Of a stretch of 64,000 nucleotides of DNA, positions 21,342-54,279 are shown piece after piece (position 1 is the first letter of the stretch; each line of letters begins with the position of its first letter). A program made the translations under genes and the position numbers. The stretch comes from an uncultured bacterium (GTDB taxonomy: Bacteria > Myxococcota_A > UBA796 > CAJQPC01), in the NCBI GenBank assembly GCA_963934385.1, contig CAWVYO010000001.1, positions 4,765 to 68,764 of the forward strand, in the 5' to 3' direction. The notes under the pieces are model-generated. The model was not told the DNA's origin. It searched no databases and saw only the letters and a list, made by a program, of their open reading frames with translations.

Positions 21342-21411
21342 TCACACAAAGTGTATATTTTGAGGTTGAATTTGGATCGCGGTAGCCTTGAAGGCTATAG
21401 ACCGGCCCAAT

Positions 21412-30585: not shown

Positions 30586-33396
30586 TCATTTAGTACCCGC
30601 CAGTACGTCCTCTAATTTTGCGATCATTTTTTTAAGATGTGTTTCTGGGGAGAGCTTAAGCTCTTTTGCAATTTTCGATGCGTCCTCGAGTGCACTCTTA
30701 GCGACATCGAGATGACCAAGGTGGTGGGCTATCAGTCCCTTTTGGCAGCTCAGTTGCCCGTCGTAATCTGGGTAGTCAGGTCGGACAAAGTTCTCGGCCT
30801 GTTGAACCAGGACTTCGGCTTCGTCGAGTTGTCCTAATCGAGTATATAGTAAGGCCAGTTGACCCCGAAGAGTCATCGAGCGGAGTGGCCAGAGCTCATC
30901 AAGGATTTCGATCGATAATTTGTAATACTCGCAACTCTTTTCGAATTCGGACTGTAGGTCTAAAATTCCAGCTAGATTACCCAGTTCAATGCCTTCGAAG
31001 AAGCGATTACCTACCTCTCGGTGTATGAACAGAGCCTCCTCAAAGTTTGCACGAGCGCTCAGAATTTGCCCTTGCCCATCACGCATGCAACCTAGATTAC
31101 CTAAAGCAGCGCCCTCAAACACTCGATTACCCACCTCTCGGTGAATGGCTATAGCGGTTTCGAAGTATATGGCAGCGCGCTCAGTTTCATTTTTTTGTTG
31201 GTAGAAGTTGCCCAGATTGGCCAGAATCTTTCCTTCATTACAACGGTCGCCTTCTTCCCGAAGGCCAGCGAGAGCAGCCTCGTAATGGGCACCAGCCTCA
31301 TCTACTTTACCCATGTTTACTTTTACAATTGCGATCCCACTCAAGACGCACCATGCGCTTCGTTGGTCTTCCAGTTTTAGGTACAGTTGATAGCTGTTCT
31401 CCAGTTCAGCAAGTGACTCATCCAGCCGACCTACTTGCCTCAACATAATGCCATTCCTAAACCCAAGTCTTGCTTTAAACCGAGGTGTACAGCCGTCACT
31501 AGACATTACGAGTTCGGCCAAGCTCAAGCCATCCTGAATGGGACCTTTGCTACGGAACACGAAGATTGCCGCCAGAGCTGCCTGGGCTGCGACGTCGATA
31601 GCCCCTTGCGACAAGCCTATAGTTACTGATTGCTTAAGGTTGTCCAGCTCTAGCGTTAGCGCCTGCTGACGTGCAACGCCTCCGTGGATGAAAAGGGCAT
31701 CCAACGATTCGTCAGTGCCCAGTTCTGCGTAGTAGCGTGCGTGTCGGAGCCGGTGGACTGCTGCCGTCCCCCCCTCTTCTAGCTTCTGAGCGGCATAGGC
31801 TTGAATGGACTCGAATATACCCACGCGACAATCGCCTATTTTAGACTCTCGTGTGTGCAGTAAGCTGTGGTCGATCAATGTTTCAATCACATCCATTACC
31901 AACTCGGCACAATCCCCAAGATCGAGTACAGCCTCGGCCGCCTTAAGGTCAAACCCCCCCTTGAAGACCGAGCATTGAGCCAGTGCAAGCTGTTCCCATG
32001 GTTTTAGCATCTCCCATGACCAGTCGATAGCACCCTGCAGCGTTGTCTGTCGTGCAGTCCGGTCTCTTCTTTTGGCTCGCAACAGTCGAAACCGATGGCT
32101 TAGGCGCTCTAGTATTTGGGCTGGCTCAAGCAGTTGGATCCGTGCGGCAGCCAGTTCAACAGCCAGCGCTATTCCGTCGAGCTTGGTCACTATTTCCTCA
32201 ACCACCAAACGATTCTCGTCGTTCAGAACAAAGTCCGACACATTGGCTCGAGCTCTCTCTTCGAAGAGTTGGACTGCTTCTTCAAAGTCGTGTGGTCTCA
32301 GGTTGTAGACATGTTCACCGCCGATATTCAGTCGTATTCGACTGGTCACAATGAAGATCGCTTCTGGCGCATGAAGCATCCACGAGGCTACAGACTTGGC
32401 TGCTGCGTCCACTATCTGTTCAAAATTGTCCAACACCACCAGCACTCGTTTCCGCTGGGCAAGGGTATTGCCCAGCTGTTCAAGTATATTCACGTTGTTT
32501 AGTGGACTTCCGATCGCGTGCCCCACCGTTTGAATGAAGGCTTCCAAACTGTGAGCCTCACTCAGATCACAGAACCATACCCCTCCTGGAAAATGATCTA
32601 GTTGCTCTGCGGCAAAGCGTAGCGCGAGTCGGGTTTTACCAAGACCTCCCGTTCCCAGGATGGTGATTAGATGCTGCCCTTTCTCGACCCTAGAACCCAG
32701 TTCAGTCAACGCATCAGCACGTCCGATGAATGAGTCCACTCGAGCGGGGAGGTTGGTCTTGCGCAGCTCGGGGGTTTTAAGCTTCGGAAAGCGACGACTT
32801 GAGAGTGAAGGTGGCAATAGCTGGCGGATGCGCTCTCTCGACTCAAGCCCTCGAAGCGCATGCTCACCAAGATCTTCCACTACAACCAGATCCATCGCTC
32901 CCAAGGCAGCCCAGGTGGCATCGGAGATCAACAACTGTCCCCCGTGTCCCGCGCTGGAAAGACGCGCTGCGCGATTCACATCGGGACCAAAGAAATCGCT
33001 CCGTCCGGTAACTGGATCCTTGCGCTCAACTGGATTGCCCGTATGAATTCCCATTCGCACGCGAAGACCCCTAAATGTCCCGTCTGTATTGGTTCCGGAC
33101 AAGGACGATATGTTGGGTGAGCGAAGCTCGTCGGGCCAGTTCGCTTCGTTCAGCATGTGCTGAGCATCTAAGCAAAACCTAACGGCGTCACTGGGCTCGG
33201 GAAAGGCAATCATGAAGGAGTCGCCCTCGGTTTTGACTTCGTAGCCGCAATGCGCCTGAATGGATTTACGCATGATCCGGTTGTGAATATCGAGTATATC
33301 TATGAATTCATCGCCAAAATGTTCCCACAACACAGTTGAGCCCTCGATGTCGGTGAAAACCAGAGTGACGGAGGAGTGAGTTGAAAAGTCGAGCAT
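30586..33396 (-). CDS. Class III adenylate/guanylate cyclase fused to a STAND (NB-ARC/AAA_16-like) NTPase and TPR repeats
   Basis: Cyclase: 'LVFTDIEGST', 'EVKTEGDSFMIAF', 'RVRMGIHTG', 'GPDVNRAARL'. NTPase: Walker A 'ILGTGGLGKTRLA', Walker B 'VLVVLDNFEQ'. C-terminal repeats 'H/FREVGNRxFEGxxLGNL' are TPR_12-like. Start moved to ATG 33396; the track uses TTG 33417. Confidence 0.85.
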   Translation of the reverse strand: MLDFSTHSSVTLVFTDIEGSTVLWEHFGDEFIDILDIHNRIMRKSIQAHCGYEVKTEGDSFMIAFPEPSDAVRFCLDAQHMLNEANWPDELRSPNISSLSGTNTDGTFRGLRVRMGIHTGNPVERKDPVTGRSDFFGPDVNRAARLSSAGHGGQLLISDATWAALGAMDLVVVEDLGEHALRGLESRERIRQLLPPSLSSRRFPKLKTPELRKTNLPARVDSFIGRADALTELGSRVEKGQHLITILGTGGLGKTRLALRFAAEQLDHFPGGVWFCDLSEAHSLEAFIQTVGHAIGSPLNNVNILEQLGNTLAQRKRVLVVLDNFEQIVDAAAKSVASWMLHAPEAIFIVTSRIRLNIGGEHVYNLRPHDFEEAVQLFEERARANVSDFVLNDENRLVVEEIVTKLDGIALAVELAAARIQLLEPAQILERLSHRFRLLRAKRRDRTARQTTLQGAIDWSWEMLKPWEQLALAQCSVFKGGFDLKAAEAVLDLGDCAELVMDVIETLIDHSLLHTRESKIGDCRVGIFESIQAYAAQKLEEGGTAAVHRLRHARYYAELGTDESLDALFIHGGVARQQALTLELDNLKQSVTIGLSQGAIDVAAQAALAAIFVFRSKGPIQDGLSLAELVMSSDGCTPRFKARLGFRNGIMLRQVGRLDESLAELENSYQLYLKLEDQRSAWCVLSGIAIVKVNMGKVDEAGAHYEAALAGLREEGDRCNEGKILANLGNFYQQKNETERAAIYFETAIAIHREVGNRVFEGAALGNLGCMRDGQGQILSARANFEEALFIHREVGNRFFEGIELGNLAGILDLQSEFEKSCEYYKLSIEILDELWPLRSMTLRGQLALLYTRLGQLDEAEVLVQQAENFVRPDYPDYDGQLSCQKGLIAHHLGHLDVAKSALEDASKIAKELKLSPETHLKKMIAKLEDVLAGTK

Positions 33397-33701
33397 AGGC
33401 AGCACATTGTGGCACAACGAGTGTTTAAACAGGCTCTTTTTCTGGATAAATCAGTTCACAGCGTAAGGGCATCCCCTGCCGCCGACTCTGACCTTGAGTT
33501 CTCCGTTTTGGTCATTCATGTGAGCGAGAAATAGCATACGGAGCAAAGCTACTCGATATCAATCTCCCAGAACGGTCTGTTTAATTGAGACTCATTGGCT
33601 AGCACTTCCCTTCCCAAGGACTTTGGCAGTACCACAGCGCCCAGACTTCATCAATCCTTTTTAGACACCCAACAATATCTGAGAGAACGAGCCTGTGAGC
33701 C

Positions 33702-35578: not shown

Positions 35579-36064
35579 TTACTGGGGATCACGCAATACC
35601 ATCGCGACTGTGTAGTCTTTATGCTTTAGCGTACCCACTTCCTTGAACGCATATCTCTTATGAAAACGCATTGAGCCAGGATTTGGGGGCTGTAGGTTCA
35701 CCTCCGCGGCAATAGGCCACCCACGCTGCTCTGCATCTTGAATAACCTGAGCATATAAAAGCGATCCGATTTTACGATTTCGGTGGGTTTGGGCGATGGC
35801 AATTCGGTCCACATACAAGAAATTATCGTACCGTTCATTGAACCAAGCGTAGTTCAAGCTAGCGTAGCGCGTTTTAGGTAGAAGACAGATAACAAAACCT
35901 ACCAACTCGTCTTCGTCGAAAGCCCCAAGCGGAAGCACAGCTAAGCTTAGAAGGTCCGCGAGCTCTTGCTTTGTGACCTGACCCACACCAGGGTCTCCAT
36001 CTACATTGATACGGAATAAGGTTGGAAGATCATCGGTCTGAAGTGCTCTAATCGTCAACGACAT
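35579..36064 (-). CDS. GNAT family N-acetyltransferase
   Basis: 'IAIAQTHRNRKIGSLLYAQVIQDAEQRGW' is the acetyl-CoA binding motif A. 161 aa. Confidence 0.8.
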   Translation of the reverse strand: MSLTIRALQTDDLPTLFRINVDGDPGVGQVTKQELADLLSLAVLPLGAFDEDELVGFVICLLPKTRYASLNYAWFNERYDNFLYVDRIAIAQTHRNRKIGSLLYAQVIQDAEQRGWPIAAEVNLQPPNPGSMRFHKRYAFKEVGTLKHKDYTVAMVLRDPQ

Positions 36065-36152
36065 GTGACCTCGTCAGTTGAATTTGTCAATCGGGCGAAG
36101 TCGACTCCGCCAAGCGTATATAAAATAATGAATAATGTTTTAGACATCTTCT

Positions 36153-36938
36153 TCAAGTCCTAAGCATTTTCCTAATCAACATTGCCGTCGGATCATGACC
36201 TTCCAAGAACGCAAGTCTTACATCGCTATTGGCGTTCTCTACTTTTACTCTCGTTACAGCTGTATAGTCGGTTCCGTCTGTCACAACTCTCACAGGTCTC
36301 CACTCCGTGTCAAAGGCCTTAATCTCTACAACAGCGCTCTGGGGCAGCACTATTGGTGGCAGCCTTGGTGAGTGAGCGGAGATGGTGGTTAGCTGGGTGT
36401 GTCTCAATGTCGGGTGACAGACAGGTCCACCTGCTGAGAATGAATATGCGGTGGAGCCCAACGCCGTTGCTACAATGAGTCCATCGCAAACCACGCGGTC
36501 GACAACCTCTACCCCATCGACCTCTACTCGAAGGTGTGCTGTCTGACCAGACATACGCTCTAGGTAGACATCGTTTAGTGCCAACCCCTCCAGAGTTTCG
36601 CCACTTTGTGTCAGCGCCATCATTTTTAAACGAGGTACTGACATCTCGCGCCAAGCGCCACGGTTTACTAGCTCTACAATAAGATCTACGTCATCTACGT
36701 CGTTGAGCATAAAGCCGAGCATGCCGCTGTTTAGCCCCAGATATATATATGACTGCCCAAGCTCGGTGATAACCCCCAAGAGAAAGCCGTCGCCACCAAT
36801 TACTAGGCACAATTCATCGGGTAGCGTGGCAAAATCCAGTAACACCTTGAGCTTTTCGTATAGCTTTGTTGAACTCTTTGATTTGGCATCGTAGCGTATC
36901 ATTGGTAGTAGAGTATCTCGGTTTGCAGACAAGTTCAT
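36153..36938 (-). CDS. nadK: NAD(+) kinase
   Basis: 'LVIGGDGFLLG' (GGDG), 'NDVYLER', 'DGLIVATALGSTAYSFSAGGP'. Confidence 0.88.
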   Translation of the reverse strand: MNLSANRDTLLPMIRYDAKSKSSTKLYEKLKVLLDFATLPDELCLVIGGDGFLLGVITELGQSYIYLGLNSGMLGFMLNDVDDVDLIVELVNRGAWREMSVPRLKMMALTQSGETLEGLALNDVYLERMSGQTAHLRVEVDGVEVVDRVVCDGLIVATALGSTAYSFSAGGPVCHPTLRHTQLTTISAHSPRLPPIVLPQSAVVEIKAFDTEWRPVRVVTDGTDYTAVTRVKVENANSDVRLAFLEGHDPTAMLIRKMLRT

Positions 36939-36954
36939 AGATAGTGGTGAGAAT

Positions 36955-37755
36955 GTGAAGCTAAGAAAATACCACGGACTCGGTAACGACTACTTCGTTT
37001 TAGAAGAACCAAGAGGTCTCTCACTGACTCCGGACTTGGTTGTCCATATCTGCCACCGCCATACAGGAGCGGGCAGTGATGGAATATTAGAGCCCGTGGA
37101 GTCTGACATAGCGGACTTCGGTCTGGTTATTCACAACCCAGATGGATCACAGGCTGAGAAGTCTGGCAATGGTCTGAGAATATTCGCTCGTTGGCTATCT
37201 GATCATCGGGACGCAGGGGTTAAATTTACAGTCGAGGTTCCCGCAGGTGTTGTGAGTTGCTCCGTTGGCGCCGACCTAATTACCGTGGGAATGGGCGTAG
37301 CTACCTTTGTGCCAGTGGAGGTACCAGTCGCTTTAGATTGCGAGGCCATCGACTATCCTCACCCTACCCTACCCCTGTCATTTACAGCTGTCGGTATAGG
37401 TAACCCCCACTGTGTTGTTTTCTGTGATGAGCCACTGGATATGCTCCCTTGGCGCAAATGGGGCTCGAGTTTAGAGTGCGATCCACTATTTCCGCGCCGA
37501 ACTAATGTTCAGTTCGTAAATGTTGTGTCTGAGTCGGAGTTAGAAATAAGGATCTGGGAGCGAGGTGCAGGTGAGACATTGGCCTCGGGTAGTTCATCGT
37601 GTGCTGTGGTGGCGGCTGCCCTCAAGAAAGGTCTGGTTAGAACTGGAGAAATAGCAGTTGTCATGCCTGGTGGAGAGATGTCAATTACGATAGATAGCGA
37701 CTATGATATTATTCTTACAGGACCTGTTGAGTTTGTCGGGATCTTTGAGTGTTGA
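36955..37755 (+). CDS. dapF: Diaminopimelate epimerase
   Basis: 'YHGLGNDYFVL', 'SGNGLRIFARWL', 'GIGNPHCVVF' and 'ERGAGETLASGSSSCAVV' (the two catalytic Cys regions). GTG start. Confidence 0.9.
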   Translation: MKLRKYHGLGNDYFVLEEPRGLSLTPDLVVHICHRHTGAGSDGILEPVESDIADFGLVIHNPDGSQAEKSGNGLRIFARWLSDHRDAGVKFTVEVPAGVVSCSVGADLITVGMGVATFVPVEVPVALDCEAIDYPHPTLPLSFTAVGIGNPHCVVFCDEPLDMLPWRKWGSSLECDPLFPRRTNVQFVNVVSESELEIRIWERGAGETLASGSSSCAVVAAALKKGLVRTGEIAVVMPGGEMSITIDSDYDIILTGPVEFVGIFEC

Positions 37756-37833
37756 CTGTAATAAGAGATCTAAACTATTGAAGGTTTGCGCAATTCCTCT
37801 AATAATGAGGTATATAGAAGAGCGGAGTCATGT

Positions 37834-39240
37834 ATGCGTGTCATGTTAATTAGATCCCCTGCTAACCACACGGTTGAGAGTGAGATCCCAGATGCGGTTG
37901 AGGCTGAAAACCTCTCCTATCCGCCTCTGTCGTTGCTTTCAGTCGCTCAATATCTGATTGAAAGGACTGATCACGAGGTAAAAATCCTAGATGCGCAGTT
38001 GCATCAGTGGGATCATGCCGAGGTAGAGAGGCGAATAAGGGAATATGCCCCAGAAGTCGTTGGGATTACTGTTTTTACTGTAGGACTAGTGGATTGCCAC
38101 AAGACTGTTCAGACCGCGAGGCGGTGCCCGTCAGTTAAGCGAGTTGTACTGGGCGGTCCCCACATCAGCGATTTCCCAAAAGAGTCCGTAGGGCTGGACG
38201 GGGTAGATGCTGTTGTGAAAGGTGAAGGTCAGAAGCCACTCGAGTCACTACTTGAGGTTTGGGCAAGGGGTGAGGAAGCCAAAGGGATACCAGGAGTAGT
38301 CGCCCATAAGGATGACCCTATCCCAGAGCAGGACGTGTTTTTATCAGATAACTTGGACGAATATCCAATCCCTGATCGCAGGCTTATCGACTATGAAAAG
38401 TACTACGATGTCATGGGCGCAGGCGGCATCTTTTCTACAATTTTTACCGCGAGAGGTTGTCCTTATCACTGCACCTTCTGCAACACGCCTCGACATAAAT
38501 ATCGGGTGATGTCAGCGGGTAGAATTTGCGATGAGATTCAGGCTTGTCTCGATCTAGGAATCTACGAGATATATTTCGTTGACGACACATTCAACATCAC
38601 TAATCAGCGGGTTCATAACCTCTGTGATGAGATCTTAAAGCGAGGTCAGAAGTTCTCTTGGACAGTTCGTTTTAGGGTAAAATGGGTTGATCGCGAGCTT
38701 TTAGAGAAAATGAAAAAGGCTGGCTGTTCACGTATTCAGTTCGGCGTTGAACAAGGAACTGAAGAAGGGCTAAAGCGATTCAAAAAGGGCGTAAAAATTG
38801 GTGAGATAGAGTCTGCATTCAGGCTGTGTCGTGAGGTGGGTATTCGTACAGTAGCCTATTTCATGATCGGATCTCCCACGGAGAAGTCACGCGCAGACGT
38901 GATGGAGACCATTGACTACTCCATTAAGCTGAAGCCAGACTTTGTGATGTACAACGTACTCACCCCCTTCCCTGGTACAGCCCTGTGGCGCGAAGGAGAA
39001 GAGGCCGGTGTTTTAGACCCAGAACCGTGGTTTGATTTCATGCGAAATCCAAACTCGGATTTCAAAGCACAGGTGTGGGATGAAAATTTCACTCGTGAGG
39101 AGCTGCGAGACTTGCTTTCGATAGCATATAGAAGGTTCTATTGGCGCCCAGAATTTGTAGTAAAAAATCTAATCCAAATAAGAAACGTGAGCGACTTTAA
39201 GCGAAAAGCGGTCGCAGGCGTTAGGTTGTTAATGGGATGA
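37834..39240 (+). CDS. B12-binding domain radical SAM protein (class B), copy 1
   Basis: N-terminal Rossmann-like B12-binding region ('VVGITVFTVGL...VVLGGPHISDFP'). Cluster motif 'ARGCPYHCTFCNTP' (CxxxCxxC). Start moved to ATG 37834; the track uses 37786. Confidence 0.85.
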   Translation: MRVMLIRSPANHTVESEIPDAVEAENLSYPPLSLLSVAQYLIERTDHEVKILDAQLHQWDHAEVERRIREYAPEVVGITVFTVGLVDCHKTVQTARRCPSVKRVVLGGPHISDFPKESVGLDGVDAVVKGEGQKPLESLLEVWARGEEAKGIPGVVAHKDDPIPEQDVFLSDNLDEYPIPDRRLIDYEKYYDVMGAGGIFSTIFTARGCPYHCTFCNTPRHKYRVMSAGRICDEIQACLDLGIYEIYFVDDTFNITNQRVHNLCDEILKRGQKFSWTVRFRVKWVDRELLEKMKKAGCSRIQFGVEQGTEEGLKRFKKGVKIGEIESAFRLCREVGIRTVAYFMIGSPTEKSRADVMETIDYSIKLKPDFVMYNVLTPFPGTALWREGEEAGVLDPEPWFDFMRNPNSDFKAQVWDENFTREELRDLLSIAYRRFYWRPEFVVKNLIQIRNVSDFKRKAVAGVRLLMG

Positions 39241-40841
39241 GTAGCGAAGCACTAGACATGTCGTCTTACCAAGGTCAAGACCACCCACTACTCTCAAAAA
39301 GCGGTAAGCCATTCACCGTTGTTTTGATGACTATTTATTCAGTTGAGAATGCTGGTTTACGGTATATTTCTGCTGCCCTTCAGAGAGAGGGGATAGCAGT
39401 TGAGATCGTATTTTTGCGGGACTGGGTTCATAATAATTTGGAAATGCCAACGGACTTAGAGTTCGAGATAGCCACAGACATAGCCCGACGAAAGGGTGCC
39501 GATTTAATCGGTGTAGGCTTTATGTCTAGCTTATTGCCAATGGCAAGAGAGCTAACAAAAAGGCTAAAGGACGCGCTGCCGAACACCCCTATCTGTTGGG
39601 GAGGAATTCACCCTACATCTGTGCCCATAGAGTGTATTGACGAGGTTGAGTTCCTTTGTGTTGGAGAAGGTGAGATGGCGATGATCGACCTCGCCCGCGC
39701 CCTCGCTGCAAATGAGCCTACAATCGCTATTCCAAACATTTGGGCAAATCAAGACGGCGTTGTCTATGAAAACAAGCCGCGCCCTCTAATTCAAGATCTA
39801 GACTGGCTACCGTGGCCGGACACCGCAGACGATAACAAGCACTACATCGAAAAGGGTCGAGTGACGATAGAGGAGCCTTGGAAAAGGAGCGCCGAGTATC
39901 GCATCTATTTTTCTCGTGGCTGCCCGTACAACTGTTCGTATTGCTACGTCTCTATTTTGCGCGACGTATACGATGAAAAAGGTAAAGCGTACTACCGTGC
40001 CCGTTCTGTAAAGCACATCATGGGCGAGCTTGAGCACGCCATGAAGACCTTCCCAAAGATCGCCCGAATAAAGGTCGATGACGACACTTCGTTCGCCTTT
40101 GGAAAGCCTTGGATGGAGGAGTTCTTAGTCGAGTATCCAAAGCGCGTGAACCTGCCCTTTGAGTGCATGCTCATTCCTCCAATGTTGCGACCACAAATGC
40201 TAAAGCGACTTCAAGAGGTCGGACTTGTAAGAGTTCAGACAGGGATTGAGAGCGGTTCAACAAAAGAGAGCAAGGAAATTCACAACAGGGCTCCAGGCAA
40301 CGTGAACATTCTTAAGTTTGCAGCGGCCAATAAAGAGCTGAAGCTCAACATTGTCTACGATATCATTGTGGACAATCCCCACGCTACAGAAGAGATGAAG
40401 ATTGAGACCGCAGAGTTTTTATTAGAACTTCCAGGTCCCTACGACATCTTTTTCTACTCTCTAAATTACTTCCCAGGCACCGCGCTCACAAAGGCGTCCT
40501 TGGCAGCTGGCACATTAGATCCCGAGTTGGTCGAGGGCCGCAACAACAAGGCTTGGCATCAGTTTAGAGTATCAATGGACTGGCCTAGAGATAATGAAGA
40601 GAAATTCTATCTCGCTATTTTCTGCTTGGCATCGAAGTCGTTTGTTCCAAGAGCATTCATTAGAAAGCTTCTCGATAATCGGGAATATTGGAAGAAAAAC
40701 GTCGAGCCTCTCCATTATCTGGCGTGGTCAGCGAACACCGTGAAAATGTTTTGGGTGGGGATGCGCTACTTTAGGAACGGAGAGCTTACTTGGTTTAAGT
40801 TGCGCCAATACGGTGATCTCACAAAGATGATCAGTCAGTAA
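39237..40841 (+). CDS. B12-binding domain radical SAM protein (class B), copy 2
   Basis: 'LIGVGFMSSLL...ICWGGIHPTSVP' and 'FSRGCPYNCSYCYVS' (CxxxCxxC). The ATG overlaps the upstream TGA as ATGA (39237-39240). Confidence 0.85.
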   Translation: MSSEALDMSSYQGQDHPLLSKSGKPFTVVLMTIYSVENAGLRYISAALQREGIAVEIVFLRDWVHNNLEMPTDLEFEIATDIARRKGADLIGVGFMSSLLPMARELTKRLKDALPNTPICWGGIHPTSVPIECIDEVEFLCVGEGEMAMIDLARALAANEPTIAIPNIWANQDGVVYENKPRPLIQDLDWLPWPDTADDNKHYIEKGRVTIEEPWKRSAEYRIYFSRGCPYNCSYCYVSILRDVYDEKGKAYYRARSVKHIMGELEHAMKTFPKIARIKVDDDTSFAFGKPWMEEFLVEYPKRVNLPFECMLIPPMLRPQMLKRLQEVGLVRVQTGIESGSTKESKEIHNRAPGNVNILKFAAANKELKLNIVYDIIVDNPHATEEMKIETAEFLLELPGPYDIFFYSLNYFPGTALTKASLAAGTLDPELVEGRNNKAWHQFRVSMDWPRDNEEKFYLAIFCLASKSFVPRAFIRKLLDNREYWKKNVEPLHYLAWSANTVKMFWVGMRYFRNGELTWFKLRQYGDLTKMISQ

Positions 40842-40952
40842 GAAAGGCGATCCTTTTGGTTAGGAGTACCTTCGAGCAAGTCTCCAGATCTAAGAAAGAT
40901 AGAAAAACATCTCAATTTGTGGCAGTTTATGATCACTTGCTAAAGTTTAGAG

Positions 40953-42290
40953 GTGTGTTTGAGTCACGTTAGAGGTTTTTTGATAGGAATGTTGGGGCTG
41001 ATTGGAACTGTAGCCTCCGCAAATACAGGTACTATTAATGTTGCTGTCAGCTCTGCTCCAGGAGAGATAGAGCTCGATGGTTTTCCGACTGGTCAAACTG
41101 CTCCAGCTATAATCGACTCCGTATCGCCAGGGGATCACCTAATTGAGCTTGAATATGGCTGCATGGTTGGCTCGGCCACAGTCACAGTATATCGAGATCA
41201 AGAAGCAGCAGCAGATGTACGTCTTGAAAATCGCGGTGGAGAAGGCACAGTGCGCCTTAGAGGTCTTCCTCGTTCCGCCTCTGTCTTCTTTGATGATGCG
41301 CCGCTTGAGGGCATTGACAGTGGCGTTCAGGTTGCCTGTGGTGGTCACAGAGTACGTGTAGAGGCCAGCGGGTTTGAAGACTGGGAATCAATGGTAGTCG
41401 TTACGACTGGCCGTTGGGTGACCCTTGAAGTTGCGATGATAGAGGGTCAGATTGAAGAGTCTGTATCCCCTGTCGTTGCTGCTAATGATGAGGCTCGCGG
41501 CGGTTGGGATGATGATGACGACGGTTGGGATGATGATGACGACGGTTGGGATGATGATGACGACGGTTGGGACGAACCAGTAGGTCAATCGAGAGAAGAC
41601 CTAGTTCGCGCTGAAAGAGATGCGAGAGCCCGTGCATCTGAAGAAAGAAGGGCTGCCGAGGCAGATGATAGAGCTCGTCGCGAGGCAGAGGAGGCTGAGG
41701 ATAGGCGCCGTGAAGAGGAGGCAGCTCTTGCTAGAGCTGAACGAGAAAGAGAGATGTACGGTGACCTAGACTCTCTAGATGGTCCTTCCGGTGGCGACGA
41801 AGAATTCGAAGAGGAACGCTACGAAGAGGATCGCTACGAAGAGGATCGCTACGAAGATGAAGAGTTTGAGGATGAAGAGTTTGAGGATGAAGATTCATGG
41901 GACGATGAGTTCAGAGGCTACTCTGACTCAGGCGACGATCTAGATGACGACTTTGGTGGTGGGAGCTCTATTAGAGGAAGCTCAGACGGTAAGCCAACGC
42001 TCTTGGCAGGTATTACAACAATCGCTGGCTTAGGTGGACTAGGGTTCGGAGCTTACACCTATATGGCCTACCAAGATTCCGCTGAAGCTTGGAAGACAGT
42101 GGCTGCTGAATTTGGGGCGACTAGTAATGAAGCAGATGGATTTTGGTCTCAAAATACAGAACCCAAATATGTGATGGCGATCACCTCACTTGTAGCGGGC
42201 GGGGTCATGACATCTATCGGTGGCGGACTATTCATCTTCAAGGTGATGGGTGACGACGGCGGGTTTGTTGGGTTCAATGGTGAGTGGTAG
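40953..42290 (+). CDS. PEGA domain protein with a long acidic/charged repeat region and a C-terminal TM segment
   Basis: Signal peptide, then two PEGA-like modules ('APGEIELDGFPTGQTAP...GDHLIELEY', 'SASVFFDDAPLEG...GGHRVRVEASGFEDW'). Next come 'GWDDDDD' x3-4, 'ERYEEDRYEEDRYEDEEFEDEEFEDED' and TM helices near the C-terminus. GTG start. Confidence 0.7.
   Translation: MCLSHVRGFLIGMLGLIGTVASANTGTINVAVSSAPGEIELDGFPTGQTAPAIIDSVSPGDHLIELEYGCMVGSATVTVYRDQEAAADVRLENRGGEGTVRLRGLPRSASVFFDDAPLEGIDSGVQVACGGHRVRVEASGFEDWESMVVVTTGRWVTLEVAMIEGQIEESVSPVVAANDEARGGWDDDDDGWDDDDDGWDDDDDGWDEPVGQSREDLVRAERDARARASEERRAAEADDRARREAEEAEDRRREEEAALARAEREREMYGDLDSLDGPSGGDEEFEEERYEEDRYEEDRYEDEEFEDEEFEDEDSWDDEFRGYSDSGDDLDDDFGGGSSIRGSSDGKPTLLAGITTIAGLGGLGFGAYTYMAYQDSAEAWKTVAAEFGATSNEADGFWSQNTEPKYVMAITSLVAGGVMTSIGGGLFIFKVMGDDGGFVGFNGEW
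41502..41564 (+). repeat. In-frame 21-bp tandem repeat GGTTGGGATGATGATGACGAC x3 (encodes GWDDDDD)
   Basis: Read directly; a fourth, partial copy follows. Confidence 0.9.
41816..41890 (+). repeat. In-frame 15-bp tandem repeats (CGCTACGAAGAGGAT x3, then GAGTTTGAGGATGAA x2)
   Basis: Read directly. Encodes RYEED x3 and EFEDE x2. Confidence 0.85.
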
Positions 42291-42307
42291 CTGACCAGAC
42301 TGTTTGA

Positions 42308-43300
42308 TTAGTAGACGTTGTAGCGCCGGCGGTTAGCCTCGTGCTCTGCCGCTGACCGAGACGGGTGAATTCTCCCATGTTCGTCGTGTAGATAGTACCA
42401 GTATCGGCTGTGCTCAGGAGCAAGTGCCGCATTAAGAGCGTCTAATCCCGAGTTCCCAATAGCGGTAGGTGGCAGCCCAGCCCTCAACCTTGTGTTGTAT
42501 GGATCATCCGGATCTCTGAGTGCGGCTAATAATCCAGATCTGTCGTTCCATTCAATTAGAGAATAGTGAGAGGTAGCATCGATACCCAGATGCCAGTCGT
42601 TCTCTAGACGTTTCCAGATGATTCCAGCGACAAGTGGCATCAACCCAGCCTCAGGCTCTTCTCGTTGGACCATGCTTGCCACTATGACAAGGTCATTGAG
42701 ACCGCGGTGGTTTACAGTCGCTCCAGCAGGGATGAGGAACTGGTCGCGGAATGAATTTAATTGTCGCTGAATAAAGCGCTTTACGAAATTGTCTGGATCG
42801 CGATTTGGCTCTACCAGGTATGTGTCTGGAAAGAGATAGCCCTCGAGGCTTGTCAGATCTCCAGCCATGTCTGTTGGCAGGGTGAACATGTTGGGATTGT
42901 TGGCAGCGGCGGTGTACTCCCCAGGCTCAGCCCACCCCTTAGCTGCGAGAGCATCGTCTATTTCTAGGATTCTCCACCCCTCCAAAATTGTAAATGGCTC
43001 ATCGTCGGGAATTGGTGGTCCACAGAGAACCTCAGCTATCTGTGGGATTGTCATTGACGGCGCCACTAAAAAATCGCCTGCCTTTAGGCAGTTGGTCTCT
43101 TGTTCGTTTCTTAGAAACCACTTCCAGTGATCGGTAGATTCTATAAACCCAGCTGTTTCGAGCATATCACCAACTCTGTACCCCGAAGAGCCTGCAGGGA
43201 CGATAAAGACGCGGGTCTCTCTGTCTGCCGGGTTTAGCGCGACGTCTAGGTCGGGCGGTATTAGAGAGCATCCGTAAAGAGAAAATAGTGTGAGTATCAT
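42308..43300 (-). CDS. mltG: Endolytic murein transglycosylase MltG (YceG family)
   Basis: 'LEGYLFPDTY', 'IVASMVQREE', 'YNTRLRAGLPPTAIGNSGLDALNAAL', 'YWYYL'. Confidence 0.88.
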   Translation of the reverse strand: MILTLFSLYGCSLIPPDLDVALNPADRETRVFIVPAGSSGYRVGDMLETAGFIESTDHWKWFLRNEQETNCLKAGDFLVAPSMTIPQIAEVLCGPPIPDDEPFTILEGWRILEIDDALAAKGWAEPGEYTAAANNPNMFTLPTDMAGDLTSLEGYLFPDTYLVEPNRDPDNFVKRFIQRQLNSFRDQFLIPAGATVNHRGLNDLVIVASMVQREEPEAGLMPLVAGIIWKRLENDWHLGIDATSHYSLIEWNDRSGLLAALRDPDDPYNTRLRAGLPPTAIGNSGLDALNAALAPEHSRYWYYLHDEHGRIHPSRSAAEHEANRRRYNVY

Positions 43301-43406
43301 GCTAGATGGCTAACATTTGTGTGGGGCGCTGGTCAAGCAGTAGCTCAATGGATTAAAGGGTAATCTACAAACTCAGATCACATTGATAGATGTAGATTGA
43401 ATATAA

Positions 43407-44228
43407 TTGAGGTGCAGCTTGGATCAGTTACGAGAACGAGTAGAGGCGGCGTGGCGCGGTGAAACCTCTGCTGCAGAAGCGTGGGCAGCAGCCAGTGAGG
43501 CTGTTGCAGTACTGGACCGAGGCGAGGCTAGAGTCGCGGAAAAAAGCGATGGTGAGTGGCGAGTTAATGAGTGGTTAAAGCACGCAATTTTACTCTACTT
43601 CCGTCACGCTCCAATGAAGACAATAGAGTCAGCTCCTTTTGAGTTTTACGATAAAGTTCCACTTAAGACTAATCTAGAGGCCGCTGGGGTGCGGGTAGTA
43701 CCCCCGGGCACTGTGCGCCACGGCTCTTTCTTGGAGCGAGGCTGTGTTGTAATGCCTGGTTATGTAAACATTGGGGCATGGGTTGGCGCTGGAACTATGG
43801 TTGACACATGGGCGACTGTTGGTAGCTGCGCACAAATCGGGAGAGGAGTTCACCTAAGCGGAGGCGTTGGAATAGGTGGCGTTCTAGAGCCAGCATCAGC
43901 GAGACCAGTGATTATTGAAGATGGGGCGTTTATTGGTTCCAGAAGCATAGTTGTTGAAGGCAGTATTATTGAGGAGGAAGCCGTTTTGGCCGCAAATGTG
44001 GTGATTACTTCTTCGACTCAGATAATCGACGTCACGGGAGATAAAGAGATAGTCTATAAGGGTAGAGTTCCCGCGAGATCTGTTGTAATCCCTGGGACTC
44101 GTGTAAAATCATTTCCGAGCGGTGACTATGGTGTTGCCTGTGCTCTAATTATCGGGAAGCGAAAAGCCTCTACAGATAAGAAAACCTCTCTCAACGATGT
44201 ACTCCGTGAGTTTGCCCTCTCTGTCTAA
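43407..44228 (+). CDS. dapD: 2,3,4,5-tetrahydropyridine-2,6-dicarboxylate N-succinyltransferase
   Basis: 'WRVNEWLKHAILLYFR', then hexapeptide repeats 'VMPGYVNIGAWVGAGTMVDTWATVGSCAQIGRGVHLSGGVGIGGVLEP'. TTG start. Confidence 0.88.
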   Translation: MRCSLDQLRERVEAAWRGETSAAEAWAAASEAVAVLDRGEARVAEKSDGEWRVNEWLKHAILLYFRHAPMKTIESAPFEFYDKVPLKTNLEAAGVRVVPPGTVRHGSFLERGCVVMPGYVNIGAWVGAGTMVDTWATVGSCAQIGRGVHLSGGVGIGGVLEPASARPVIIEDGAFIGSRSIVVEGSIIEEEAVLAANVVITSSTQIIDVTGDKEIVYKGRVPARSVVIPGTRVKSFPSGDYGVACALIIGKRKASTDKKTSLNDVLREFALSV

Positions 44229-45297
44229 ACAAGATCTTCGTGCTTGGTTGGTCGATACAACGCTCCAACTAGTCCAGGTCTCCTCACCCACAGGCGATGA
44301 GCGCGAGCTATGCGATATGGTAGAGGCTCGTCTGCGTTCCATATCTGGATTGATAGTTGAGCGAGTTGGAGACAGCGTGGCGGCCCATCGCCCTTGGACT
44401 GGACGTCCACGAGTGGCTCTGGTTGGTCATCTAGATACAGTACCTAAGAGCGATGGACAGGAGCCTACGCGCGTAGAGGGCGATCGCCTATTTGGGTTGG
44501 GCTCCTCTGATATGAAGGCGGGTGACGCTGTTATGTTAGCTCTGCTAGAGCTGGTTGAGCCCAGTGAAATGGCGTACGATCTCTGTATAGTACTATACGA
44601 TGCGGAAGAGGGACCATATGAGCAATCGGGTCTGGGTCCGCTGTTTGATGCCCTTGATTGGATAAAGACTGTAGATCTTGCGTTCTGTCTTGAGCCTTCG
44701 GATAACGTAGTTCAGGTGGGCTGTGTTGGTAGCCTTCACGCTAAGGTTACCGTTAGAGGTCGAGCGTGTCACTCCGCTAGACCTTGGCAAGGCGAGAACG
44801 CCATCCACAAAGCAGGTAACTTAATGACTCGCCTTGGGGCTCTAGAGCCAAAAGTGGTGACAGTTGCAGGTCACAAATTCTCAGAGGTAATATCCGCCAC
44901 TATAGTGAACGGCGGTGGCGCTAGAAATGTGATTCCTAGCGCCTGTGTGTTCAATATCAACTTTAGGTTTGCACCTGGAAAGAGCGAAGAGGCAGCTCTA
45001 GCAGAGTTGGTAGAGTTGGTCGGTGATCTCGCTGACGTAGAGCTAATAGACTCTTGTCCATCTGGTTCTGTTGTGGATAAAAGTCCGCTATTTGATCGCT
45101 TTTTGTCCTTATCTGGTGCCGATGTAACGGCAAAACAGGCTTGGACAGATGTCGCTAGGTTTGCTCAGATAGGTGTCGATGCGGTGAACTACGGTCCAGG
45201 AATATCTAGCCAAGCTCATCAGGCAACAGAGTACGTTGATATTGATCTAATTGTTGATTCGTACGACTCTTTTTATCGATTTCTTACTACCCCATGA
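44197..45297 (+). CDS. dapE: Succinyl-diaminopimelate desuccinylase (M20 family)
   Basis: 'VALVGHLDTVP', 'GLGSSDMKAG', 'VLYDAEEG'. Adjacent to dapD. The track start (ATG 44197) overlaps dapD by 32 nt; in-frame GTG 44206 and TTG 44212 are alternatives. Confidence 0.82.
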   Translation: MYSVSLPSLSKQDLRAWLVDTTLQLVQVSSPTGDERELCDMVEARLRSISGLIVERVGDSVAAHRPWTGRPRVALVGHLDTVPKSDGQEPTRVEGDRLFGLGSSDMKAGDAVMLALLELVEPSEMAYDLCIVLYDAEEGPYEQSGLGPLFDALDWIKTVDLAFCLEPSDNVVQVGCVGSLHAKVTVRGRACHSARPWQGENAIHKAGNLMTRLGALEPKVVTVAGHKFSEVISATIVNGGGARNVIPSACVFNINFRFAPGKSEEAALAELVELVGDLADVELIDSCPSGSVVDKSPLFDRFLSLSGADVTAKQAWTDVARFAQIGVDAVNYGPGISSQAHQATEYVDIDLIVDSYDSFYRFLTTP

Positions 45298-46904
45298 TGA
45301 CGCTGCGAACGACAACGTCGGGACTGTTCTTGGTCCTAATCTTGTTTGTCTCGGTTTTTGCGAGTATGCCACCAGTTGTAGACGAGGAGAGCTACCTCTT
45401 TATTGGAGGTATTATTGGTGAACACCTAGGTACTCCATATGATTGGTGGCGAGCATGGCAGCCTGTGGGAGAGATCCCATCAGATGATACGTTCATCTAC
45501 GCGCACCCTCCCCTGCACCTTTGGTGGAGCGCAATATGCCAAAGTCTCACCAACTCAATTTCGACTCTTCGCATTGCGGTAGCCCTTCCTTGGTTGGCCT
45601 TGCTGTCTGGCGCCGTGGCCTATCTTTCTCACGAGCTTTCTAAAAGAAAAGGTTGGGCTCTGTCCCTTTGGCTCTCTAGTCCAATCGTGTTGTTGGGGTG
45701 TCAAGCGAGCCTTATGATCGATCTACCATTTGTTGCCCTATCCAGCGCAGCAGTAGCTCTATGGGTTAGGTCTTGTAGGACAGAGGGGTCTTCTAGTCTA
45801 TCGTTTGTAGTAACAGGCGTTGTCTTGGGTTTGGCCTGTATCACCAAGTATCCGGCGCTAGTTTTGCTGCCTGTATTGGCTATTCACGCTAAAAATAGTG
45901 GAAATTTGGCTGGTTTAGTAAGAGCCCTCGTGGGGTTTCTGTTTGTATTTGGTGGGGTAGAAGTTTGGTTGATGGTTCAATATGGTGAACCTCATATTTG
46001 GGTCGCTATTGAGTCAGCGGGTACCATTGATCGGGGCCCGGTGTTTGGTCGAGGTTTTGGGTTATTAGTACGGTTGGGAGTGATGTTCTCTCCAGCGATT
46101 ATTTTCATGAATAGGCGGTTATTTGCGACAATATCAGGGGCTTTTGCAGGCGTTGTTGGGTTGGCTGTAGTTGGTCTTGGTGACTTTGGGGCTGTTGGAA
46201 TCACTGCCATTTTGATCTGTTGTGCTGTGTCGGGTTTTATTATCTATACGCTCATTACTGGGATTAGGCAGACAAAACTGAAATGCGATGACACCCTTTT
46301 ATTGGCGTGCTGGGCGGCGGCTGTCTTGCTGTCTGTACTTCTTGGACACAACTATGCGGGAGGTCGATACCTCTTGCCAGCTGTACTACCACTAGCCATC
46401 TTGATATCCAATACTGGGGTTCTTGGTGGCACAAGAGTACTGTGGAAGAGGTTGGCAGTTGGAGCCTGGGGGGGGCTAGGGTTACTTTTAGCGGTTGGTG
46501 TAGACAGGGAGGCGCGTGCAATTGTTGCTTTGGCGGAGTCCACTAGTGAACACCAGACATCAGGAGATCTTTGGTTCTCAGGTGAATGGACTTTTCGCCA
46601 CGCTATGGTTGAGGCTGGTTGGAGCTGGTTGGGTCCAGAAGGTCAAATACAGATTGGCGACTTAGTGGCCATCCCATCAAATTCAGGGGCCGGATTCTTG
46701 CCGGTAGCGGAACTTGTTTTAGTAGAACGGCTCGTGTCTGCCGAGCAGTACCCTTTTCGACTAATAGATTATCAAAGCGATCTGGGCTATCATTCGGAGC
46801 TTTTGGGTCGTTTACCATTTGGGTTTTCGTCAGGAGAATGGCATGTTGTAGAGCTATACAGAGTTGAATCACTCTTTGAAGTAGACCACGGGAATGATCA
46901 ATGA
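45294..46904 (+). CDS. GT-C fold glycosyltransferase-like membrane protein (ArnT/PMT_2-like)
   Basis: More than 10 TM helices. First-loop acidic motif 'VVDEESYLF' and 'IYAHPPLHLWW', typical of the PMT_2/ArnT family. C-terminal soluble domain of about 110 aa. ATGA overlap with dapE. Confidence 0.6.
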   Translation: MMTLRTTTSGLFLVLILFVSVFASMPPVVDEESYLFIGGIIGEHLGTPYDWWRAWQPVGEIPSDDTFIYAHPPLHLWWSAICQSLTNSISTLRIAVALPWLALLSGAVAYLSHELSKRKGWALSLWLSSPIVLLGCQASLMIDLPFVALSSAAVALWVRSCRTEGSSSLSFVVTGVVLGLACITKYPALVLLPVLAIHAKNSGNLAGLVRALVGFLFVFGGVEVWLMVQYGEPHIWVAIESAGTIDRGPVFGRGFGLLVRLGVMFSPAIIFMNRRLFATISGAFAGVVGLAVVGLGDFGAVGITAILICCAVSGFIIYTLITGIRQTKLKCDDTLLLACWAAAVLLSVLLGHNYAGGRYLLPAVLPLAILISNTGVLGGTRVLWKRLAVGAWGGLGLLLAVGVDREARAIVALAESTSEHQTSGDLWFSGEWTFRHAMVEAGWSWLGPEGQIQIGDLVAIPSNSGAGFLPVAELVLVERLVSAEQYPFRLIDYQSDLGYHSELLGRLPFGFSSGEWHVVELYRVESLFEVDHGNDQ

Positions 46905-50626: not shown

Positions 50627-50798
50627 GAAGCTCGATTTACTGGGTATTCTCGCTATAGTCTGGATAATTATAGCTGTTGCTATAACGATATTTATGGCTC
50701 CGCGATTGGGCTTGAGAGGATGGGTATGGCTCATTGTCCATGACCTCTTATGCCTAGTGGGTTCGGTTCATCAACTCAGTCGCACCGGTTATAAATAG
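50598..50798 (+). CDS. Possible small two-TM membrane protein in a convergent gap (speculative)
   Basis: 66-aa ORF (TTG start) with two hydrophobic stretches, 'LLGILAIVWIIIAVAITIFMA' and 'GWVWLIVHDLLCLVGSV'. It overlaps both flanking gene ends by about 25 nt. Confidence 0.25.
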   Translation: MVTQSTSGSKKLDLLGILAIVWIIIAVAITIFMAPRLGLRGWVWLIVHDLLCLVGSVHQLSRTGYK

Positions 50799-52302
50799 CG
50801 ATCCTTTCGTATGGTTCGTCGGAGAACCACCACGGAGAGTAGGTCTCTATAGGAACCATACCCGCTATAATAAAGGAGTGATAATTAGCTGCGGCACTAC
50901 GGCTGTGGACTCTTGGACCGATCCACCAGTCAGGCATCGTGAGGCTATCTATTAGTTCTAGGCAGATGTCTTGGCTTGGGGGTTGAGGCCATGGATTTTC
51001 AGCTACGGCGTGTATGAACCTAGTCTCGCCATCCTCGTCTATTGGGGTCCAGGCGAAATCTTCTAAGTAGTGTTGCCATCCCCAGTGACCAGAGAAAGAA
51101 CCACGCCCTTGGTCAGACACTAAGAAAGCCGCTTGCCTGTGACTCTGAGCCATGGCCATATCGTCCACTGCCAGCCCCAAAGAGAGCCCTATAGAGGTTA
51201 CAATGGCTGTTTTCGTCCAGACAGAAGATCTATTCAGTCGCTGTGTCTGGTGTATGGCTGCCAGCAGGAACGCAGGCAAGAAAGGAAGCCAGTATCTAGA
51301 GGCGCTAAACCGGAGGGTCAATAAAAACAGAGCCCCACCAACAGCCCAAGCTGCTAGGAACCTTGTGTTTTGATCAACCATCTTCAATGTGGAGAAGGCA
51401 GCAGCTCCAGACGCAGTAAACAGAACAGTGATGGCGGTCTGTCCTGTGGAAAGCTGCGACACCTCTCCTGCCAACAGCCCTAAGCCAACCCCTATAATTG
51501 CAAAAGGAATAGCCCTCTTTGAGATGGACAATATGGGTAACAGCCCCACTCCCCCCAACATAGCTAGGCTGGCTATGCCCTTCCTCAACATATCTCGGGG
51601 GCTCTCTGACACGCTTTGAAAGGCAGTCATTGCGACTATATGAACTTGCCCATAGGCTAGCATATCGTGTAAAGCTAGGGCCAAGATCGGGACAAAGACC
51701 AACAGAGTCTCTCTTATTCGTTTCTTCTGAATTCCGGCTAACAACAAGAGCGGTATAAAACAGATACCAGAGTACTTAAAGAGTACGCTCGTGCCTACTA
51801 ATAGAGCCCAGCCATAACCATGGCCTCTCTTGGAGCTCAGGAACCCGCCTAGACCCGCGACAACACAAGCCAACAGAGGCAGATCTGGAGTGAGACTGTG
51901 TGTCGATAGAACAAAGAGAGGCGATGACAGTAATAAGAGAGCTGCGAGTTTCCCAGAACCAAGAAGCTCCTCTCCTAGTCGCCGCATTCCCCAAATGGCT
52001 AAGAGGACCCAAGGGAACATCATTAGATGCATAAGCCACACTGGTCCATCTGATACCGCGGCTAACCACCAGCCTATGCCAGGGGGGTTTGATAGAACAT
52101 CAAACGCTGATTCTAAAGTCCCTTGCCAATTAATCTCTACAGCGTGAGGTCTCCACATGTCCGCACGAGCCCCTTCTGCCAGACGAATGAAATTAGCGTC
52201 GTCTACGTGAACGGCTTTCCCTATGAATGGGAAAAACAATGCCGCAGCCAATAGATACAGAGCTAGTAATGGTGATTTTGTAAGCACAAAGCAGCCTATC
52301 AT
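50776..52302 (-). CDS. GT-C fold glycosyltransferase-like membrane protein (ArnT/PMT_2-like), second copy
   Basis: More than 10 TM helices. First loop 'VHVDDANFIRLAEG' and 'LSNPPGIGWWL'. C-terminal soluble domain. Same overall layout as 45294-46904. Confidence 0.6.
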   Translation of the reverse strand: MIGCFVLTKSPLLALYLLAAALFFPFIGKAVHVDDANFIRLAEGARADMWRPHAVEINWQGTLESAFDVLSNPPGIGWWLAAVSDGPVWLMHLMMFPWVLLAIWGMRRLGEELLGSGKLAALLLLSSPLFVLSTHSLTPDLPLLACVVAGLGGFLSSKRGHGYGWALLVGTSVLFKYSGICFIPLLLLAGIQKKRIRETLLVFVPILALALHDMLAYGQVHIVAMTAFQSVSESPRDMLRKGIASLAMLGGVGLLPILSISKRAIPFAIIGVGLGLLAGEVSQLSTGQTAITVLFTASGAAAFSTLKMVDQNTRFLAAWAVGGALFLLTLRFSASRYWLPFLPAFLLAAIHQTQRLNRSSVWTKTAIVTSIGLSLGLAVDDMAMAQSHRQAAFLVSDQGRGSFSGHWGWQHYLEDFAWTPIDEDGETRFIHAVAENPWPQPPSQDICLELIDSLTMPDWWIGPRVHSRSAAANYHSFIIAGMVPIETYSPWWFSDEPYERIAIYNRCD

Positions 52303-54271: not shown

Positions 54272-54279
54272 GGGCGTCA

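Follow-up and report, generated by a model that had tools for sequence, protein, structure and literature searches.

A conserved, overlapping pair of class B radical SAM genes in uncultured planktonic Myxococcota, with a candidate small-protein partner

The stretch of DNA analysed here (the window) comprises 64,000 nucleotides from an uncultured bacterium of the Myxococcota_A (GenBank assembly GCA_963934385.1, contig CAWVYO010000001.1, positions 4,765 to 68,764 of the forward strand) and carries, on its forward strand, two overlapping genes for B12-binding, or class B, radical S-adenosylmethionine (SAM) enzymes, which we term rSAM1 and rSAM2. The open reading frame (ORF) of rSAM1 spans positions 37786–39240 (+) and encodes 484 amino acids when counted from a TTG codon. 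An earlier note on this DNA, made from the sequence alone, had moved the start to the ATG at 37834; this correction is supported because the first two residues of the resulting amino terminus, MRVMLIR, are invariant (M1 and R2) in 12 of 12 aligned orthologues, and a GGAG lies 6 nt 5′ of the ATG. rSAM1 so defined (37834–39240, +) has 468 amino acids and ends in a TGA stop codon at 39238–39240. The ATG of rSAM2 (39237–39239) sits on this stop codon, giving the ATGA overlap at 39237–39240 that had also been noticed earlier, and the rSAM2 ORF (39237–40841, +) encodes 534 amino acids of what we call type A of its orthologous slot. Given the long ORFs, the strong domain matches described below and the hundreds of orthologues, the gene pair is far beyond chance.

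Both proteins matched the Pfam families B12-binding (PF02310; 64.3 bits for rSAM1 and 50.5 bits for rSAM2, against a cut-off of 32.1) and Radical_SAM (PF04055; 71.2 and 48.5 bits, against a cut-off of 29.5). In rSAM1, the B12-binding-like Rossmann domain occupies residues 29–139 (37918–38250, +) and contains a GGPH motif in which G107, P109 and H110 are invariant and G108 is nearly invariant in the orthologue alignment (A1). The radical SAM core follows at residues 205–358 (38446–38907, +) with the cluster motif CPYHCTFC (38458–38481, +), the three cysteines of which, C209, C213 and C216, are invariant across 12 orthologues and 11 paralogue rows. Four further conserved cysteines of rSAM1, C232, C264, C298 and C332, were considered as an auxiliary cluster and dropped, as only C298 is nearly invariant among the paralogues. 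The layout recurs in rSAM2, with a B12-binding-like Rossmann domain at residues 35–151 (39339–39689, +) that contains GGIHPT and GEGE motifs (G122, G123, G143 and E144 are invariant in 22 alignment rows) and a radical SAM core at residues 223–395 (39903–40421, +) that contains the cluster motif CPYNCSYC (39921–39944, +), in which C233 and C236 are invariant and C229 is nearly invariant (alignment A2). At about residues 430–534 (40524–40838, +), rSAM2 ends in a helical region that has no Pfam match; the elements VEG, QFRVS.DWPR, LASKSF and GELTW.K.RQYG are kept there across the rSAM2-like family (alignment A2), the structure model has helices at residues 438–525, and many family members align over the full length, from residue 28 to 532.

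AlphaFold2 (AF2) models built on alignments reached predicted local distance difference test (pLDDT) values of 85.1 for rSAM1 and 89.5 for rSAM2. Foldseek matched them to solved class B enzymes with E values of 1e-14 to 1e-24 and query TM-scores (TMq) of 0.57–0.73, at identities of 14–24%; the best matches were AprD4 (TMq 0.71–0.73), TsrM and MgmA for rSAM1, and TsrM, MgmA, OxsB, AprD4, CysS and TokK for rSAM2. A sequence search of the PDB likewise returned distant class B matches only (AprD4, MgmA (9ccb), TsrM, OxsB and TokK), with E values for rSAM1 of 2.5e-24 (AprD4), 1e-17 (MgmA) and 2e-16 (TsrM). Both proteins, then, combine a B12-binding domain, a CxxxCxxC radical SAM core and the fold of solved members, in agreement with the earlier description of two paralogous class B proteins of 468 and 534 residues. 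With these domains and with fold matches at 14–24% identity, the assignment to class B is secure, whereas membership of a characterised family is not. In an alignment of 356 residues, rSAM1 and rSAM2 share only 24% identity, and are therefore old, distant paralogues and not the outcome of a recent duplication. A prediction of the complex between rSAM1 and residues 25–534 of rSAM2 scored 0.00, a result that weighs neither for nor against binding.

Like TsrM, MgmA, AprD4, OxsB, TokK and CysS, the pair has a Rossmann domain, a partial TIM barrel and a C-terminal helical domain. Identity is only 14–24%, however, and the substrates of the solved enzymes (tryptophan, a glutamine of methyl-coenzyme M reductase, an aminoglycoside, a nucleotide, and carbapenem and cystobactamid intermediates) are no guide to those of the pair, and we know of none of the six as a conserved two-enzyme core module. 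AprD4 is a diol dehydratase, the B12-like domain of which is not known to bind cobalamin, and a B12-binding domain alone is therefore no proof of cobalamin binding.

The scores against curated NCBIfam profiles place neither protein inside a curated orthologous group, in support of the earlier interpretation: rSAM1 matched 32 families and rSAM2 17 and, among the matches listed, every score is below the curated cut-off. The best match of rSAM1, the anaerobic Mg-protoporphyrin IX monomethyl ester cyclase BchE (TIGR02026; E 6e-47, residues 2–447 of 468), shares its B12-binding plus radical SAM layout, but scored only 160.5 with rSAM1 and 63.9 with rSAM2 against an equivalog cut-off of 481.35. The same layout is found in two class B enzymes of hopanoid metabolism, HpnJ (TIGR03471), the best match both of rSAM2 and of the divergent rSAM2 type described below, and in HpnR (TIGR04367). 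HpnJ, however, gave 148.5 for rSAM1 and 88.3 for rSAM2 against a cut-off of 577.6, and HpnR gave 144.1 and 35.4 against 650. The nearest other class B model was TIGR04072 (127, cut-off 360); PhpK scored 143 with rSAM1 (cut-off 600), and the cut-offs of the remaining curated class B families among the matches listed (ladderane B12, AprD4, BzaD, MgmA/TIGR04014, TsrM/TIGR04428, ArsL and KedN5, among others) were not reached either. Public pipelines name orthologues of the pair ‘BchE’ or ‘YgiQ’, and both names are over-annotations. For BchE this follows from a score far under the cut-off and from the lack of a match in the 90%-complete genome to PF00124, used as the sole marker of a photosynthetic reaction centre, with a positive control in Synechococcus. 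Squalene–hopene cyclase, sought with PF13243 as the sole marker, gave zero matches in the same genome; the control was positive in 2 of 14 genomes.

Broader searches gave a similar picture. At E ≤ 1e-30, an exhaustive search recovered 1,561 representative clusters as relatives of rSAM2; the closest ten representatives of 50%-identity clusters are unnamed or carry generic names, and the only clusters from a protein atlas bore the generic label ‘B12 binding/Radical SAM’. Full-text literature searches, limited to main texts, yielded nothing on the pair or on the small protein introduced below; the one paper that pairs ‘Myxococcota’ with ‘B12-binding’, PMC11388002, concerns an unrelated Petrotogaceae protein. 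By analogy only, and by description, the pair resembles GrsA and GrsB, two paralogous radical SAM enzymes that act sequentially on one lipid, but no ether-lipid or tetraether genes adjoin it. We also considered, from descriptions only, whether the pair is related to Mss, the bacterial synthase of membrane-spanning lipids, and dropped the idea; the passages on Mss do not call it B12-binding. On their NCBIfam profile scores and the nameless clusters nearest to rSAM2, the two proteins belong to an uncharacterised, lineage-specific pair of class B orthologous groups.

The genome that contains the window is a 3.4-Mb, 338-contig, 90%-complete assembly with 50% G+C, and DNA matching the window turns up in metagenomes from the sea and from seawater in several studies. 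Orthologues of the pair were found solely in uncultured genomes from lakes and oceans; apart from a few bins with plainly wrong titles, these are labelled Deltaproteobacteria or Myxococcota (UBA796 and UBA2957 among them). We compared 41 related genomes of one order, which, being related, are non-independent samples. Exactly one rSAM1 orthologue is present in 35 of them, and an rSAM2 of some type in 37, type A in 26 and a divergent type B in 11; both genes are absent from all four genomes of one family (f3). Every genome that has rSAM1 (35/35) also has an rSAM2. Identities to the window proteins are 59–76% for rSAM1, 67–77% for type A rSAM2 and 36–41% for type B rSAM2. At the same loci, DapF is 44–58%, NAD kinase 42–59%, MltG 46–56% and DapD 70–74% identical, such that the pair is more conserved than the first three of these neighbours and only DapD is similar. 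The type B gene occupies the slot behind rSAM1 in loci L026–L030, L056, L060–L062, L096 and L124–L129, where rSAM1 itself remains 59–72% identical. This combination points to an exchange of the second enzyme or, alternatively, to evolution at very uneven rates. In a quick tree, types A and B, plus some unnamed cluster representatives, fall within one starred clade of 19 rows, the internal order of which is unresolved.

Linkage of the two genes was assessed in two partly overlapping sets of loci, 20 around rSAM2 (from the 37 genomes with rSAM2) and 80 around rSAM1. In the first set, 16 of the 20 loci have rSAM1 no more than 2 kb upstream of rSAM2 on the same strand, and in 14 it is directly adjacent. 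In the second, rSAM2 is directly behind rSAM1 in 57 of the 70 loci whose sequence continues for 1.9 kb or more downstream, 49 times at 60% identity or more and 8 times at less than 50%. When counted by genome, the genes are directly adjacent in 22/35, within 5 kb in 27/35 and unlinked in 8/35, and their adjacency, with gene order and strand kept, spans six families of the order. These observations support the view that rSAM1 and rSAM2 behave as a functionally linked module, which was one part of the earlier proposal of a tailoring module. In one relative (G031; loci L014 and L099), a third class B radical SAM gene (4013–5575), 33% identical to rSAM1, lies directly upstream of rSAM1 and forms a tandem of three.

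The two genes could instead encode unrelated class B enzymes that are neighbours by history, act on different substrates and overlap merely through compact packing. The unlinked state in eight genomes is in keeping with this possibility, as are the split of rSAM2, but not rSAM1, into two deep types, the association of the small protein described below with rSAM2 only, and the approximately 20 dispersed, mostly solitary class B paralogues in the genome. However, the constant order and strand over six families, the presence of an rSAM2 type in every rSAM1-bearing genome and the shared absence from f3 (0/4 for each gene) make such an origin distinctly improbable.

The paralogues were also surveyed in their own right. 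The assembly contains 20 matches to rSAM2 (22 places on 17 contigs by tblastn, several of them cut at contig ends), and the relatives have 12–35 matches each, with 1–2 in the f3 genomes. Their surroundings were scanned on ten contigs (C2, C20, C31, C48, C71, C106, C125, C168, C212 and C222; loci L040–L049). Most paralogues are solitary and dispersed, beside unrelated genes such as prfA/prmC, ruvB, helicases, a carbamoyltransferase, glycosyltransferases or a methyltransferase; small clusters occur on C20 (three genes) and C212 (a convergent pair). Because the paralogues are dispersed genome-wide, the pair is no isolated island but one example of an expansion that runs through the lineage.

In the relatives, two small genes recur right behind rSAM2, and no other flank gene is widely conserved. 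The first encodes a protein of 63–128 amino acids with a basic amino terminus (MGLLSRIK...), often an HPGRP sequence, a central part that is variable and rich in Ala and Pro, and a C-terminal acidic motif, PW[FY]L..G..DGW[DE].TNP; across 19 aligned sequences, M1, G2 and the W, L, W, T, N and P of the motif are invariant. Small genes behind rSAM2 lie, for example, at 9093–9395 in locus L099 and at 9018–9269 and 9273–9605 in locus L078. The protein matches no Pfam or NCBIfam family, and its 141 relatives in a large protein database (E ≤ 0.01) are all unnamed or ‘hypothetical’. The second gene encodes a ferredoxin that scores over the FdxA equivalog cut-off (159 versus 135) and is encoded no more than 1.5 kb downstream in 19 of 64 loci. 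The small gene was found in 45 of 80 loci overall, that is, in 45 of the 54 type A loci that extend 500 bp or more beyond rSAM2 and in 0 of 10 type B loci. By genome, it is present in 23 of 41, which resolves into 23 of 26 with type A rSAM2, 0 of 11 with type B and 0 of 4 in f3. It stands directly after rSAM2 in 21 of these 23 genomes, including all seven in which rSAM1 and rSAM2 are unlinked, and therefore belongs with rSAM2. We consider a functional link between the small protein and type A rSAM2 probable; the protein could be an adaptor (for instance, a membrane tether that acts via an amphipathic amino terminus), a regulator or one of several substrates. FdxA is a likely electron donor, or reductant, for the radical SAM cluster.

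At the locus in the window, rSAM2 and the next gene are separated by a spacer of 111 bp (40842–40952) in the place that, in most relatives, is taken by the small gene, often together with fdxA. Searches of the 90%-complete assembly with tblastn, a local hidden Markov model (HMM), a motif (regular expression) and a whole-genome tool recovered neither gene. The statement of the earlier note that no substrate gene is visible is therefore accurate for the window, but does not extend to most of its relatives, which have the small protein and FdxA after rSAM2. Two resemblances to the small protein were rejected. A 69-amino-acid ORF on contig C118 shares only the amino-terminal MGLRDK... (HMM E value 0.13), lacks the W motif and has unrelated neighbours, and the resemblance of GWDDDDD repeats in the PEGA-domain protein downstream of rSAM2 to DGWD in the small protein was taken as a chance product of low complexity, one PEGA orthologue having DYDD repeats instead.

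These findings bring a protein- or peptide-modifying system into consideration, in which the small W..L...W..TNP protein would be the substrate (akin to a ribosomally synthesised and post-translationally modified peptide (RiPP), a peptide-derived cofactor or a modified protein). rSAM2, and perhaps rSAM1, would modify its invariant C-terminal motif with electrons from FdxA, and in the genome studied here the gene would have been lost, be unassembled or have been replaced by another target. Its tight association with type A rSAM2, position directly behind rSAM2 and habit of tracking rSAM2 but not rSAM1 where the two are unlinked all fit such a system. The invariant M1 and G2 and the short C-terminal motif around a variable Ala/Pro-rich middle recall a leader plus core, the 141 matches without a name would suit such a substrate, and MgmA and TsrM, which act on a protein and on tryptophan, respectively, are among the best fold matches. 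A small gene beside the enzyme is also a feature of RiPP class B C-methyltransferases, but their models scored far below cut-off with rSAM1 and rSAM2 (85 and 64 versus 282 for TIGR03975, ‘rSAM_ocin_1’; 131 and 43 versus 750 for ApyD, NF050148). Moreover, the small ORF of the relatives comes without a Pfam or NCBIfam family, a recognised leader family, a nearby protease or a nearby transporter or exporter, and the window has no such ORF. rSAM1 is 59–72% identical in genomes that lack any small protein, and the small gene is missing, with rSAM2 kept and conserved, in two type A genomes (G008 and G018) and in 9 of the 54 type A loci with room for it. Since the gene has repeatedly been lost while rSAM2 was retained, the small protein is probably dispensable, and since the genome studied here appears to have lost both the small gene and fdxA and keeps both enzymes intact, the protein is probably not the sole or essential substrate. 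On balance, a protein-modifying system of this kind is possible but unlikely.

The genes around the pair are those that the earlier note had named, with an NAD kinase gene in addition, and DapF, MltG, DapD and DapE passed NCBIfam cut-offs. dapF (36955–37755, +; TIGR00652, 206.6 versus 114.65) ends 78 bp upstream of rSAM1, an NAD kinase gene lies divergently upstream, and a gene for a PEGA-domain protein (40953–42290, +), recognised by Pfam (PF08308), follows rSAM2; mltG (116.2, cut-off 103.4), dapD (337.7, cut-off 204) and dapE (408.8, cut-off 304.2) lie beyond. The middle of the PEGA protein is long, acidic and of low complexity and includes EDRYE/EEFED repeats as well as four GWDDDDD repeats; the C terminus is hydrophobic. 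The earlier observation that no RiPP precursor, SPASM domain, transporter or isoprenoid gene lies nearby also held, because none was detected in Pfam scans of 10 neighbouring proteins and 37 further window ORFs, in which the transporter nearest to the pair is an MMPL protein at 21388–23817.

From this setting it had been proposed that the pair tailors an envelope molecule, and a two-step module for a lipid, peptidoglycan or a diaminopimelate (DAP)-related molecule, tied to dapF, the PEGA gene, mltG, dapD and dapE, has several points in its favour. dapF is upstream on the same strand here, occurs within the 6-kb upstream flank in 40 of 80 loci and is directly adjacent to rSAM1 in 28 of the 73 loci with room; the PEGA gene follows the pair in family f1. 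Genes for two large membrane proteins with weak PMT/PMT_2 (ArnT-like glycosyltransferase) matches are near (45294–46904, +, and 50776–52302, −), several paralogues elsewhere in the genome adjoin glycosyltransferases, a carbamoyltransferase or a methyltransferase, and HpnJ, HpnR and the ladderane B12 enzyme are among the best, although sub-threshold, NCBIfam matches. However, the window is an oriC-proximal housekeeping block that contains dnaA, dnaN, recF, gyrB, yidC, mnmE, mnmG, rsmG and parAB. Half of the related loci lack dapF in the flank, no flank ORF of the seven reference loci without dapF recurs in more than 20 of the 80 loci, and the pair moves off dapF without loss. The PEGA gene is downstream of rSAM2 in only 9 of 20 loci, all in f1. 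No lipid or isoprenoid gene adjoins the pair, no squalene–hopene cyclase was found in the genome, and we know of no radical SAM step on DAP or muropeptides. Because the window is a housekeeping block and the links to dapF and the PEGA gene are patchy, the DAP/peptidoglycan setting is best read as the inherited gene order of origin-proximal core genes. An envelope-tailoring role of this kind, for which the gene order is circumstantial, seems rather improbable.

Other features of the window were noted in passing. The origin region spans 281–17415 and 52385–62672 and includes dnaA (7971–9368, −) and a gene for an R3H protein; the 1.09-kb gap between dnaA and yidC (9369–10458) is a candidate oriC. 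The membrane protein gene at 45294–46904 shares its end with an overlapping rhomboid protease gene. A 943-amino-acid protein (30586–33417, −) combines adenylate/guanylate cyclase, NB-ARC/AAA ATPase and TPR repeats in a STAND-type signalling architecture, and two adjacent ArsA/GET3-like P-loop ATPase genes (859–2912, −) stand beside gyrB.

Short contigs that match the stretch are present in four metatranscriptome libraries from three studies. In the best library, five of six contigs are at least 99% alike; they comprise positions 37822–38086 (rSAM1), three pieces of rSAM2 and one piece of the PEGA gene. No contig in the four libraries covers dapF or bridges two genes, and they have no bearing on co-transcription. 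Because the libraries may contain DNA and the contigs cannot show transcript ends, they provide only a weak hint that the pair and the PEGA gene are expressed. A promoter and terminator scan of positions 36000–43500 found sites no more commonly than in shuffled sequence (10 versus 8.5, and 9 versus 6.2, in shuffles).

Taken together, these results lead us to propose, with a probability of roughly 0.55, that rSAM1 and rSAM2 act one after the other, each by a radical step that is probably a methylation, on a single conserved substrate for which the locus carries no gene. The two genes would be co-transcribed, translationally coupled and functionally linked. By the chemistry of the family, the [4Fe–4S] cluster bound by the CxxxCxxC motif of each enzyme would be reduced and SAM cleaved to give a 5′-deoxyadenosyl radical, which would take a hydrogen from an unactivated carbon; a methyl group would then be delivered from methylcobalamin to that substrate carbon, the commonest class B outcome. 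According to passages of PMC13331322, supplemented in part by general background, most characterised class B members transfer methyl from methylcobalamin, and other outcomes include ring formation, ring contraction, thioether formation and dehydration. That both enzymes would serve one pathway is suggested by their conserved order, overlap and co-occurrence, and a core cellular target by conservation above that of housekeeping neighbours together with the absence of biosynthetic-cluster features. The pair has the character of a clade-wide core gene set and not that of a secondary-metabolite cluster. As to the nature of the substrate, we lean, at somewhat less than even odds, towards a non-peptide (a lipid, glycoconjugate or cofactor); a protein or peptide is a less likely candidate, and an equal share of our rough estimate is left open. 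What the analysis establishes for the pair is its domains, motifs, fold, conservation, linkage and distribution; we infer the common substrate as well as the chemistry and the roles of the accessory genes.

Several points weigh against this proposal. Methyl transfer is merely the commonest class B outcome, and the activity of the pair is a prediction only; the best structural match of rSAM1 is AprD4, a diol dehydratase that is not known to bind cobalamin. The genes are unlinked in 8 of 35 genomes, and because rSAM2 exists in two deep types beside an rSAM1 that is 59–72% identical, the two enzymes could have different substrates. The genome is 90% complete, so the absence of the small gene from it is not proven. 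Finally, the tie between the small protein and rSAM2 may argue that this protein is the substrate in most of the clade, which fits poorly with a leaning towards a non-peptide. In the furthest extension of this argument, the pair would be the catalytic core of an undescribed cassette of rSAM1, rSAM2, the small W..L...W..TNP protein and FdxA, in which both enzymes modify the W-containing motif of the small protein. We regard this as a speculative, rather unlikely arrangement. Were it true, the cassette would yield a modified protein or peptide-derived cofactor of a new type, the streamlined marine genome studied here would represent a reduced state of the cassette, and the cassette would form a visible part of the growth of the class B radical SAM family across the clade, to 12–35 genes per genome.

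Class B radical SAM enzymes catalyse some of the hardest biological alkylations known, and most of the family is without an assigned substrate. The lineage studied here has an unusually large set of them, about 20 in this 3.4-Mb assembly, and the pair offers a tractable entry point to that set: it is single-copy, better conserved than nearby housekeeping enzymes and widespread in abundant, uncultured planktonic Myxococcota, and the small W-motif protein and FdxA provide a concrete candidate partner and electron donor. Should the pair prove to be merely another methylase of an ordinary metabolite, its interest would be routine; the product, once found, could also turn out to be a lipid, cofactor or protein modification not seen before, with relevance to ecology or as a biomarker.

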